A stretch of DNA of 64,000 bases from an uncultured Clostridia bacterium (lineage in GTDB: Bacteria > Bacillota > Clostridia > TANB77 > CAG-508): assembly GCA_947623555.1 (NCBI GenBank), contig CANQGW010000001.1, positions 20,691 through 84,690 on the forward strand, in the 5' to 3' direction. Below, in pieces: positions 28,313 through 30,677 of this stretch. The notes under the pieces are model-generated. The model worked only from the letters and a program-made list of their open reading frames with translations, was not told where the DNA came from and did no database searches. Within the stretch, counting starts at the first letter, position 1. Each line of letters begins with the position of its first letter. A program made the translations under genes and the position numbers.

Positions 28313-28355
28313 AAAGAACCATATTTCTTGTAAAGAATATGGTTCTTATTATTTT
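28313..28355. terminator. bidirectional hairpin terminator between glmS and the FGE-domain gene
   Basis: AAGAACCATATTTCTT..AAGAATATGGTTCTT forms a stem with T-rich flanks. Confidence 0.7.
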
Positions 28356-28368
28356 GTAGCCTCACTTC

Positions 28369-29764
28369 CTACTTTACATAAAGTACAACACGGAAACCGA
28401 AGCTAGGAATATCCTTGCTATCAGCCTTGTCAGCGCAACGGCGGGTTGAGATTGGATCTTCAAAACCGGTCGCGGTAAAAACTGCCACCACGAAGAACAG
28501 CGTATTTCGTACCGCTGGTTTTTCCATTACGATATCCATACTCTGTTGTCCACTCGTACATATTTCCTGCCATGTCATATATATTTTTTAATTTTGTATT
28601 GTCACTTGCTCCAGTTGCTATTTCTACATAATGATTATATGTGCATTTTGTATCGTTGACATAATTATAATATTTACTATTTGCATCGCTAGTTGCATCA
28701 GTCCAGTTTTTGGTATATCCAGACGTGAATGTTCTATATTGATAACTTTTTCCTGTACACCAGCCACTATCTGCTTTACCTTCATTTTTTCTTAAGTGTT
28801 CTGCCCATAAGCAATTATCTTCTGTTATTTGATTTTCTCCAGTACTATTTTTATAGTTTCCATGTTTTGTACTATCTTTTTCTATTCCTTCGTACTCTTT
28901 TGACATCCATGTTACAACTGTATCCCACGCCGTTCCATCTATTAATTGGCTTCTTACTCCGTAATTATCTCCACTATACATTCTTCCTGATACCTCTAAT
29001 GCATTTGGTTGACTTATTAAATTCCACGCTTGTACCCCCTTTTTACTTACTGGTTTTAAATTAGTACCTATATTATTTTTACTTTCTTGATATGTTTTAT
29101 TATCACTTGAAGCATCTACATAAAAATCTGCATTACTTGGTACTCCTGCTTCATATCTTCCTATATAAAATCCTTTATTTTCTTCTACACTTTTTTCATT
29201 TTCTGTTTCATCTGCTTCTTCTTTCCAGTCACTATATGCCCTATAATACCATGTGTTCCATCCAGCATCAGCTTCTCCACTTTCACTTTTATCTTCTACA
29301 TTATTGTTTATATCATTAGTATTTTCATTATTATATTCATGTTTTTTGTAATTACCATCTTCACAAGGTACCCACACAAATTCGTTTCCTTCTCTATCTG
29401 CTATTACTACTCCATTTTCTATTAGTTCTTCTTCTTTTACTTTAAACCCCTTTGGCACTGTCATTGTTTTTCCACTTTCATCTTTTATTTGCTTATTTAC
29501 CGTAAATATTGTTCCTTTTTGTATTGCTTCTTTTACTGTATCTGGCAAACTTTCTCTTTCAAACTCTTCTAATTGATTAACTAGTTTTCCTACAGCCTCT
29601 TGCTCTTGTTTTATAGATTCATCTGTTTTTTCTTTTGCCTTTTGTGCTCCGCTTATTATTCCATTATCTCCAAATACTGCTGTTATACTTACTCCTGCTA
29701 ATATTAATAAAACTACTATGGTTACTACTAATGCAATTAGCGTTATTCCTTTGTTTTTCAACAC
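28369..29764 (-). CDS. pilin-signal / FGE-sulfatase (C-type-lectin fold) domain surface protein; frame broken near the 3' end
   Basis: The N-terminus KGITLIALVVTIVVLLILAG is prepilin-like. The C-terminus reads DMAGNMYEWT...VLRGGSF, then a stop, and the remaining ...RRCADKADSKDIPSFGFRVVLYVK continues in the adjacent frame (track ORF 28369-28578). The shift must lie between 28463 and 28483; candidate sites are the A5 run 28477-28481 or the A4 run 28462-28465 at the interval edge. Confidence 0.7.
28385..28545 (-). other. GC-rich segment with adenine-free scaffold codons, resembling a DGR variable region
   Basis: GC is roughly 50% here against a ~28% background. The coding strand has A-free runs of 18 nt (28484-28501), 15 nt (28431-28445) and 19 nt (28385-28403) over LRGG, RRCA and FGFRVV. 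Arg is encoded by CGT/CGC here but mostly by AGA elsewhere. Confidence 0.35.
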
Positions 29765-29782
29765 TTTTTCCTCCTTTGCAAC

Positions 29783-29811
29783 TTTTCTTTAAGGTATATA
29801 CTTAAAGAAAA
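29783..29811. repeat. 29-bp lox/dif-like site, left copy (11-bp arm, GTATATA spacer, 11-bp arm)
   Basis: TTTTCTTTAAG GTATATA CTTAAAGAAAA is the exact reverse complement of 29973-30001. Confidence 0.7.
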
Positions 29812-29814
29812 TGC

Positions 29815-29860
29815 AAAAATGCTTGTAATAAGCTACACTGCCTAATTACAAGCATTTTTT
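29815..29860. terminator. strong bidirectional hairpin terminator inside the putative invertible segment
   Basis: AAAAATGCTTGTAAT...ATTACAAGCATTTTT forms a 15-bp stem with A/T tracts on both sides. Confidence 0.65.
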
Positions 29861-29930
29861 AAAGTTCAAAAAATGAGGAATTTTTAAAAATATTTTTCAA
29901 AAAATTTATATAAAACTTTGGTATTTTTCC

Positions 29931-29959
29931 TTGACATTGTAGGCTTTTATTGCTATCAT
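29931..29959 (+). promoter_or_regulatory. near-consensus sigma-A promoter inside the putative invertible segment, currently pointing away from the FGE gene
   Basis: TTGACA (29931-29936), a 17-nt spacer and TATCAT (29954-29959). Confidence 0.55.
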
Positions 29960-29972
29960 AAACATATAAAAA

Positions 29973-30001
29973 TTTTCTTTAAGTATATACCTTAAAGAAA
30001 A
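29973..30001. repeat. 29-bp lox/dif-like site, right copy (spacer TATATAC, inverted)
   Basis: TTTTCTTTAAG TATATAC CTTAAAGAAAA matches 29783-29811 at 29/29 as an inverted repeat. Confidence 0.7.
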
Positions 30002-30125
30002 TTTTTTGTGTTTTTTACCTATCAAATTACTTAAATTCATAGTAATATTTTTATTTCTTCATTAACTGCATTAGTAATACTATACAATAAAATAGTTTTA
30101 AATTTAGAGCATAGTAAGATATGGT

Positions 30126-30677
30126 TTATAGGCTTGGCTGTAAACGTGCTCCGCCTACAACATTAACTTTTCCACCATTTTGATTAAAAGTTTTTGTAGA
30201 ACCATCTGCACTCTTAATAGTACCTGTACCTCTTATTGTTAATGTTCCAGCTGTTACATTTATTGTTTTATTTATTTGCATTGTATTTGACTGTAAATCT
30301 ATTGTTACTGTTTTATTCATTTGTAACCCTGTCGTATCTTCTGTTACATTTTTTTGTAAAAATATTGTTCCTCCGCTATTATCTTTGCCATTATTTATAA
30401 CATCATCATACGCGCTTTTTAAAGTAGCATAATATTTTATATTTCCATTATTTATTATGCTGTAACTAAACTCTGTAGTCATTTGATTATAAATACCATA
30501 CTTATATTCTAAATCTTGCTCATAAACCTCTTTTATTTTTGGCATTGTTTTTAATTGACTTTTTCTTACAGATGCTGAACCCATAAATAATGCACTTATA
30601 ATAAATATGAAACTTAAAATAGTTACTATTGAATAAACAGTCATTGAACCTTTTTCATTGTTTAACCAATTTCTCAT
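30126..30677 (-). CDS. membrane-anchored hypothetical protein with a beta-helix-like C-terminus
   Basis: It has an N-terminal anchor (GSMTVYSIVTILSFIFIISALF) and C-terminal T/N/G-rich repeats (TVTIDLQSNTMQINKTINVTAGTLTIRGTGTI). I recognise no family. Confidence 0.5.
   Translation of the reverse strand: MRNWLNNEKGSMTVYSIVTILSFIFIISALFMGSASVRKSQLKTMPKIKEVYEQDLEYKYGIYNQMTTEFSYSIINNGNIKYYATLKSAYDDVINNGKDNSGGTIFLQKNVTEDTTGLQMNKTVTIDLQSNTMQINKTINVTAGTLTIRGTGTIKSADGSTKTFNQNGGKVNVVGGARLQPSL

Follow-up and report, generated by a model that had tools for sequence, protein, structure and literature searches.

What could make the 3′ end of a single gene in a low-G+C genome rich in G+C and poor in adenine, when the rest of the same gene is not? 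The question is raised by a 64,000 nt stretch (28.8 % GC) of contig CANQGW010000001.1 from an uncultured Clostridia bacterium, referred to below as the window, whose positions are used for the numbering of its genes. On the minus strand of the window, at 28369-29764, lies a target-type gene encoding a protein whose N-terminus is hydrophobic and pilin-like (MLKNKGITLIALVVTIVVLLILAG...) and whose C-terminus is of the FGE-sulfatase/C-type-lectin type. From comparison with relatives of this gene, we consider it very probable that the segment at 28382-28519, on the same strand, is by descent a variable region (VR) written by a diversity-generating retroelement (DGR).

Composition of the 3′ end of the gene

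The coding strand of the segment reads ACC AGC GGT ACG AAA TAC GCT GTT ... GGT TTC CGT GTT GTA CT; it is depleted in A, has a GC content of 45-50 % and is homologous to the repeat that relatives share between their VR and their template repeat (TR), as described below. In 100 nt intervals spanning 28350-28549 the GC content is 45-50 %, whereas the adjoining sequence has ~30 % and the window overall 28.8 %, and the rise in GC at the 3′ end of the gene reported in a preliminary description of this DNA is therefore real. The coding strand has A-free runs at 28502-28484 (19 nt), 28445-28431 (15 nt) and 28403-28385 (19 nt); in the other 1,200 nt of the gene no run without A exceeds 11 nt. The preliminary description had listed runs of 18, 15 and 19 nt, of which all three are present and the first is one nucleotide longer than stated; its further claim that the runs coincide with the conserved scaffold of the fold is correct for R-G-G and G-F-R-V-V, whereas the family is variable at the L in AVLRGG and also at R, C and A around the invariant arginine.

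Codon usage changes at the same place when the 39 VR codons from AVLRGG to GFRVV are compared with the 401 codons that precede them in the gene (Fisher test). Third-position A falls from 54 % outside the VR to 10 % inside it (p = 5e-8), and third-position C rises from 6 % to 31 % (p = 1e-5). The switch of arginine codons from AGA to CGT or CGC, also proposed earlier, is complete, with AGA or AGG used at all eight positions outside the VR and CGT or CGC at all four inside it. Glycine is encoded by GGA at 26 of 32 positions outside and by GGT or GGC at 4 of 4 inside, alanine by GCA at 19 of 25 outside and by GCT or GCG at 4 of 4 inside, and threonine by ACA at 18 of 30 outside and by ACC at 3 of 3 inside. 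C or T is the last base of 18 of the 22 variable codons; the other four are GAA, AAG (twice) and GCG. The VR is thus GC-rich and A-poor within a 28 % GC genome because its scaffold (R-G-G, P, S, R, G-F-R-V-V) is adenine-free and its variable codons are mostly NNY.

When 24 homologs are aligned, the variation is centred on the x positions of RGGSFxxxGxxxPVSxRxGxxxAxxxxxPxxGFRVVLYVK, and this hypervariable stretch is bounded by near-invariant sequence, with NIYDMAGNMYEWTTEYGY before it and GFRVVLYVK at its end. The GC-rich 3′ end of the VR (28382-28398, minus strand; GGTTTCCGTGTTGTACT) lies where the TR/VR homology of relatives stops, which is the position expected for an element resembling the initiation of mutagenic homing (IMH) site.

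DGR cassettes adjacent to relatives of the gene

We found 80 loci of this family in species-representative genomes, mostly metagenome-assembled genomes (MAGs) of uncultured Clostridia, with several paralogs per genome; loci and contigs are given L numbers here. Their hosts, among them Clostridium sp. CAG:440, come from the rabbit gut as well as from human, Hadza and chicken gut. At six loci of members more distant from the window gene (L054, L075, L079, L089, L041 and L060) an Avd homolog and a DGR-type reverse transcriptase (RT) gene are located directly downstream of the family member. The RT motif IGNxTSQ...YxDD is read in one frame at four of these six loci and across a frameshift in L041 and L060. 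Assignments were checked with the Pfam family RVT_1 for the RTs of L054 and L079, and with bAvd and the NCBIfam model DivGenRetAVD (NF033474) for the Avd of L054. A gene with a MutS_I domain is also present in L079, L089 and L075, as well as in L094 and L100, and two RT loci from other samples have the order target, MutS_I gene, bAvd, RT, template and a small SSB-like open reading frame (ORF).

In five of the loci (L054, L079, L089, L041 and L060) a TR is located just after the RT gene, where it aligns to the homologous C-terminal segment and translates as an Asn-rich C-terminus, for example RGGSFNNNGSNNPVSNRNGNNDATWYNINIGFR. In the core of these TR/VR pairs the mismatches fall at template adenines, and the few mismatches at other bases are all at the edges of the repeat. 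The scaffold is shared with the window, the templates having GCC GTC CTT CGT GGT GGT AGC TTC ... GGG TTC CGT GTC GTG CT and the window GCT GTT CTT CGT GGT GGC AGT TTT ... GGT TTC CGT GTT GTA CT. Homology between TR and VR stops at G-F-R-V-V-L, four codons ahead of the stop; in L054, L041 and L060 the two are the same through GGGTTCCGTGTCGTGCT, after which the TR has CTAATA and the VR TTAYNT. In these proven targets the last 140 nt have a GC content of 49-51 %, the rest of the gene 32-35 % and the locus 26-29 %, and the window segment is alike. The VR of each relative is always somewhat above its own template in GC (template 39-49 %), as is to be expected if random bases take the place of template adenines. 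Because the TR/VR pairs of relatives cover the segment homologous to 28382-28519, with adenine-only core mismatches and the same A-free scaffold, the window segment is best read as a DGR VR by descent, and the match of the encoded C-terminus to PF03781 (see below) together with the cassettes adjacent to relatives bears out the same proposal in the preliminary description.

The cassettes show several further features. In L060 (12460-12470) and L041 (4630-4640), which are from two different rabbit-gut MAGs, the same +1 frameshift (GAAGTT-C-GGTATTCC) is located just before IGNLTSQ, and every difference between the two RT genes around it is synonymous; this suggests that selection still acts on the split RT gene, which frameshifting or slippage may allow to be decoded. 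Two or three different templates are arranged in tandem at a spacing of ~305 nt in L104 (1772/2082), L108, L122 (289/593/903) and L125 (three copies), each followed by the same flank, CTAATATTATTCGAGATTATATATTTTAAGGAATATATACAG, and with 33- and 34-codon templates side by side; one element could therefore serve VRs with different scaffolds. A small ORF (81-107 aa) always follows the template (L054 13369-13683, L079 3792-4040, L089 13876-14142, L060 13238-13525 and L094 2694-2945), and that of L054 matches the Pfam family SSB (E-value, 1e-6). This SSB-like ORF may encode an unrecognised DGR accessory protein. In L094 (3096-8365) and L001 (1-9455) family members or cassettes lie beside conjugation genes (TrbC, TraC-like, TraG/VirD4), an integrase and a TED/SpaA adhesin, and since conjugation genes and an integrase adjoin some members, integrative conjugative elements may carry part of the family.

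Remote targets and paralogs

That a DGR can serve copies of this family far from any cassette is indicated by the rabbit-gut MAG CANQCV01. This genome shares synteny with the window at one locus, where pyruvate:ferredoxin oxidoreductase genes and the CCA-adding enzyme are followed by family members. This MAG contains at least 13 paralogs on several contigs, none of them within 10 kb of a cassette. Four of its VRs, from four loci on three contigs, are built on one GC-rich scaffold and differ at 34 variable columns, 29 of which have an A in one or more of the copies. The copies L021b and L023 are 100 % identical over the 300 nt before the VR and 85 % identical within it, a pattern of VR-confined, adenine-type diversification of non-adjacent copies. 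This implies that a template is located elsewhere in the CANQCV01 genome, and the remote targets that the preliminary description had invoked as established are a feature of this family too. The remote VRs of CANQCV01 have no clear copy of the motif that follows the stop codon in other family members (see below).

A paralog in the same sample as the window clone (L127, protein P0011, on ERZ27249647 NODE_25662) has an intact VR in which the variable codons are almost all NNY, and its 5′ coding region is 92-97 % identical to that of the window gene. More generally, the paralogs are mosaics that are 56-97 % identical across different 90 nt intervals. We note that the 5′ modules shared by paralogs break assemblies, and that contigs L012 and L013 of the window's clone stop inside the target gene, at window positions 29558 and 29141.

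The way in which such a system would operate on the window gene can be outlined as follows. A cassette elsewhere in the genome, comprising a MutS-like (MSL) gene, Avd, RT, at least one TR and the SSB-like ORF, would transcribe its TR; the RT would copy the template RNA, misincorporating opposite template adenines, and the resulting cDNA would replace the 3′ ~135 nt of the target gene. The outcome would be a rewritten ligand-binding face on the C-type-lectin/FGE module of a pilin-like surface protein. The window copy would at present be switched off twice, by a +1 frameshift in the VR and by a promoter, flanked by inverted repeats, that now faces away, and a new retrohoming event would erase the frameshift. 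On this reading a cassette would exist in the window's genome and may still act on the window copy.

The target-type gene and its frameshift

The target gene is split, a 434 aa ORF (28460-29764) ending at the TGA at 28462-28460 and 36 more codons following in another frame to the TAG at 28369-28371. When the frame is repaired the protein is 464 aa long and aligns from end to end with homologs of 461-472 aa; in a protein database holding thousands of relatives, the nearest, of that same length range, share 66-78 % identity over the full repaired length. The break in frame is thus a lesion and not the natural end of the gene. Its C-terminus matches the Pfam family FGE-sulfatase (PF03781; E-value, 1e-6; 29 bits with a cutoff of 23.3) over profile positions 177-254 of 255, and the long middle part of the repaired protein has no family match. 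A profile of the family gives weak matches in the PDB, to FGE-fold proteins only (SUMF2, sulfoxide synthases and PorK/GldK). The AlphaFold (AF2) model is of moderate quality (mean pLDDT, 64), and the top Foldseek matches obtained with it, to EgtB FGE-like domains, are not significant (E-value, 0.05); the fold assignment is therefore based on Pfam and on homology. The N-terminus scores below the cutoff for the Pfam family N_methyl (E-value, 0.008; 16.1 bits with a cutoff of 21.2) and has no match in NCBIfam, and the first 24 residues of the family profile have a weak match in the PDB to the N-terminus of the type IV pilin MshA (E-value, 0.3). The N-terminal sequence KG-ITLIALVV is without the Glu at +5 of the G/(F,I)TLxE cleavage-methylation motif.

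The +1 frameshift, one extra base that creates the premature TGA at 28460-28462, lies in the interval 28462-28481 (minus strand). The preliminary description had placed the break at a short A run, either A5 or A4; the break is real, although it cannot be assigned to the A5 run, as the extra base can be placed anywhere in 28462-28481 and four alternative one-base deletions each restore the frame. Removal of a C at 28468/28469 gives TAC CGC GAC GGT, and hence GSF-YRD-G-FED-P with three NNC codons, whereas deletion from the A5 run gives TAT (ACC GCG ACC), a poorer fit to the NNY pattern of the family. We reject sequencing error as the cause, since the frameshift is carried by three separate assemblies, two of which are SPAdes-style NODE contigs. 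The VR and the frameshift are unchanged in ERZ27249647 and ERZ27249158, which make up the three with the window itself and were located through the adjacent glmS gene; the clone is contained in the assemblies ERZ27249647, ERZ27249158 and ERZ27249167. The flanks are 100 % identical over 5-11 kb and thus represent the same clone, so that the invariance of the VR among them says nothing about DGR activity.

Downstream of the gene, a hairpin with a 13 bp stem (28314-28347) was detected by a terminator scan and by folding of the downstream region. It is the only hairpin there and lies between the convergent glmS and target genes; its simplest reading is a bidirectional terminator rather than a DGR cruciform. 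Targets next to a cassette, as well as L127, have a common motif directly behind the stop codon, in the form GCACTGAACACTG, GCACTGTAGCCTG or GCACTAGACACTG (L054, ~11600; L041, ~3636; L060, ~11464; L127, 1623-1640). No copy of it is recognisable in the window, which has GGAAGTGAGGCTAC instead.

A candidate invertible promoter upstream of the gene

The preliminary description had proposed that a switch adjoins the gene, and the upstream region fits this proposal. A repeat finder identified inverted arms of 51 nt at 29780-29830 and 29954-30004, with cores TTTCTTTAAGGTATATACTTAAAGAAA and TTTCTTTAAGTATATACCTTAAAGAAA, enclosing a 123 bp segment; the whole candidate element spans 29780-30004. On the plus strand, a promoter scan located a strong promoter of the extended -10 type at 29931-29959, TTGACA-17-TATCAT (11 of 12 matches, with TG). 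We note that each arm has a near-palindromic core, TTTCTTTAAG-GTATATAC-TTAAAGAAA, and that in the 123 bp segment a hairpin, GCTTGTAATTA...TTATTACAAGC, and the T run behind it resemble a terminator. Upstream of the paralog L127 the element is present again, with 96 % identity (L127 1-212 aligned with window 29765-29953); the L127 contig starts just inside the distal arm, and a single orientation of the promoter is seen in both the window and L127. A homolog of the L001 integrase, the one recombinase type screened for, is absent from the window. The element has the look of an invertible promoter in its OFF orientation.

Just upstream of this element, on the minus strand, is a 183 aa ORF (30126-30677) with an N-terminal hydrophobic segment, MTVYSIVTILSFIFIISALFMG. 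It has no significant family match and could encode another pilus-related protein.

Is the variable region still served by a DGR?

Although the descent of the segment from a DGR-written VR is very probable, a number of observations weigh against the view that a DGR exists to act on it. The window itself has no partner, as the preliminary description had stated for the RT and the template: ungapped comparison of 60, 100 and 161 nt pieces of the VR on both strands, together with a repeat finder, revealed no template-like repeat in the 64 kb (best match, ~45 %), the RT motif pair is absent from all six frames, and tblastn with the RT, Avd, MSL and SSB-like ORF of relatives gave no match. The 10 kb beyond the start of the window contain housekeeping genes and neither RT nor template, bringing the coverage to 74 kb of the 102 kb contig, and no TR or RT was found within 10 kb on either side of ~25 paralog loci in the closest available genomes. 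In a fitting template an A in the VR would correspond to an A in the TR, and a C, G or T to the same base or to A. A TR-specific pattern (VR 3′ end plus CTAATA flank) was found at 24 loci in JGI metagenomes and at none in IMG/VR, and none of these templates fits the window VR; a pattern matching the window's own VR had no match in the species-representative genomes, a collection that does not include the window's genome. The VR also carries changes that a DGR is not expected to make. GAA, the two AAG codons and GCG are not derivable from AAY template codons, TGC is present where 90 % of relatives have glycine (GGC to TGC, a G-to-T change impossible for a DGR), and the one-base insertion fixed in the VR of the clone is likewise not the work of a DGR. 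The VRs of the close homologs P0005, P0013 and P0016 contain one-residue deletions and a four-residue insertion, which again are not DGR-made. The window VR and that of L127 differ at 21 columns with no A in either, so that the two were not derived from one identical template. Moreover, cassettes of the family can be degenerate: L040 (1425-1857) has a remnant beside a family member, in which Avd is intact and the RT is reduced to its first 27 codons, and the RT is frameshifted in L041 and L060. Finally, the promoter at 29931-29959, which begins in the 123 bp segment and extends into the distal arm, faces away from the target gene.

Most of these observations would also be accounted for if the segment were an orphan VR, written by an ancestral DGR whose cassette has since been lost or inactivated, in a decaying pseudogene whose remaining variation reflects drift and recombination between paralogs. 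The fixed frameshift, the non-adenine change at the conserved glycine, the non-NNY codons, the lack of a cassette in 74 kb or next to any close paralog, the degenerate cassettes, the indels in P0005, P0013 and P0016 and the mosaic structure of the paralogs all favour such a fossil, and we regard it as a possibility to be taken seriously, if not the one to which we incline. Its difficulty is that the A-depleted, C3-rich signature of the window VR is as sharp as that of proven VRs despite an AT-biased genome, which argues for recent writing; in addition, the sister copy L127 from the same sample is intact and NNY-like, and the remote copies of the related genome CANQCV01 have undergone recent, VR-confined diversification. 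On balance we lean towards reading 28382-28519 as the VR of a non-adjacent (remote) target of a DGR that exists, the window copy being an ordinary member, and perhaps a silenced one, of a known type of DGR system.

Two other explanations dispense with a DGR altogether. The variation might have arisen by diversifying selection and gene conversion among paralogs, as in pilin antigenic variation, with the GC-rich codons a by-product of amino-acid constraints; the family does have many mosaic members, whose 5′ ends and upstream regions are nearly identical, and K, E, M, W and Q are present at variable positions of close homologs. This would nevertheless leave unexplained the synonymous choices in the VR (CGY for AGA, GGY for GGA, GCT for GCA and third positions limited to C or T), as well as the non-coding, Asn-codon-rich copy that relatives carry by the RT with adenine-only mismatches, and it is strongly disfavoured, to the point of being very improbable. 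The abrupt local rise in GC might alternatively mark a domain fragment acquired horizontally from an organism of higher GC, an outcome that the preliminary description had named as grounds for abandoning the DGR interpretation. The rise is, however, limited to the last ~140 nt, while the same domain upstream is at normal GC; all family members examined, from rabbit, human and chicken gut MAGs of 26-30 % GC, show it in the same place; and its boundaries match the TR/VR repeat. With the GC rise confined to that repeat in every relative, horizontal acquisition is for practical purposes refuted, and we assign it next to no probability.

Relation to known systems

FGE-type C-type-lectin (CLec) C-termini are the largest class of DGR targets, and both remote targets and the combination of Avd with MSL accessory genes have been described (PMC5758913). 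A close parallel is the TvpA DGR of Treponema denticola, a cellular, non-phage element that serves scattered related genes, namely TvpA and seven remote targets (PMC5758913), and in which, as in the family described here, the VR occupies the C-terminal end of an FGE-sulfatase/CLec domain that terminates in GFR and has adenine-free scaffold codons. The window family differs in having a pilin-like hydrophobic N-terminus and a long extension rather than being a lipoprotein, in its hosts, which are low-GC uncultured gut Clostridia, and in its larger size, one MAG alone having at least 13 copies; moreover, no RT or TR is seen for the window. The relatives share a MutS_I gene, bAvd and RT with the Avd+MSL class of DGRs in the classification of Wu et al. 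(2018), which includes for example that of Legionella pneumophila (PMC5758913), although in the relatives the template is downstream of the RT, an SSB-like ORF and a CTAATA...GAGATTAT flank, both conserved, come after it, and some have two or three tandem templates. The mechanism proposed here, adenine-specific mutagenic retrohoming into a C-terminal CLec VR whose GC-rich 3′ end forms the homing boundary, would be the same as that of the Mtd/Brt/Avd system of Bordetella phage BPP-1. That system is phage-borne, with a single adjacent tail-fibre target and the order avd-TR-brt, whereas the window family is cellular and has many targets, and its family-specific DNA patterns have no match in IMG/VR. 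In gut Bacteroidota, too, a DGR is reported to vary the binding module of a surface protein associated with a pilus; there the pilus is of type V, whereas the window family has a type IV-pilin-like N-terminus, is found in Clostridia and belongs to another protein family and another RT lineage.

What goes beyond a textbook DGR here is the pilin-like N-terminus of the target, the size of the remote family, the possible coupling to an invertible promoter, the tandem templates and the SSB-like ORF after the template. In the literature searched we found no description of DGR diversification of type IV-pilin-like proteins, or of so large a set of remote targets, an absence that is not proof of novelty. 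More speculatively, these uncultured gut Clostridia may vary a dozen or more type IV-pilin-like adhesins in three layers: an invertible promoter for each copy, mosaic recombination between paralogs, and one cellular DGR, sometimes with two or three tandem templates, that hypermutates many remote C-type-lectin tips. The window gene would be a cassette that is silent at present in this scheme, which we put forward tentatively and with some doubt.

For the window locus itself the practical consequence is modest, as the copy is frameshifted, its promoter faces away and the type of system is known. The locus does illustrate that in a low-GC genome a DGR VR can be recognised by its composition alone, with RT and template far away, and large metagenome surveys state that remote DGR targets escape them (PMC8144416). 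The gut Clostridia of rabbit, human and chicken have a large family of pilin-like lectins with DGR-written binding tips, whose expression may be phase-variable too, and this bears on the variation of surface adhesins in uncultured gut anaerobes.

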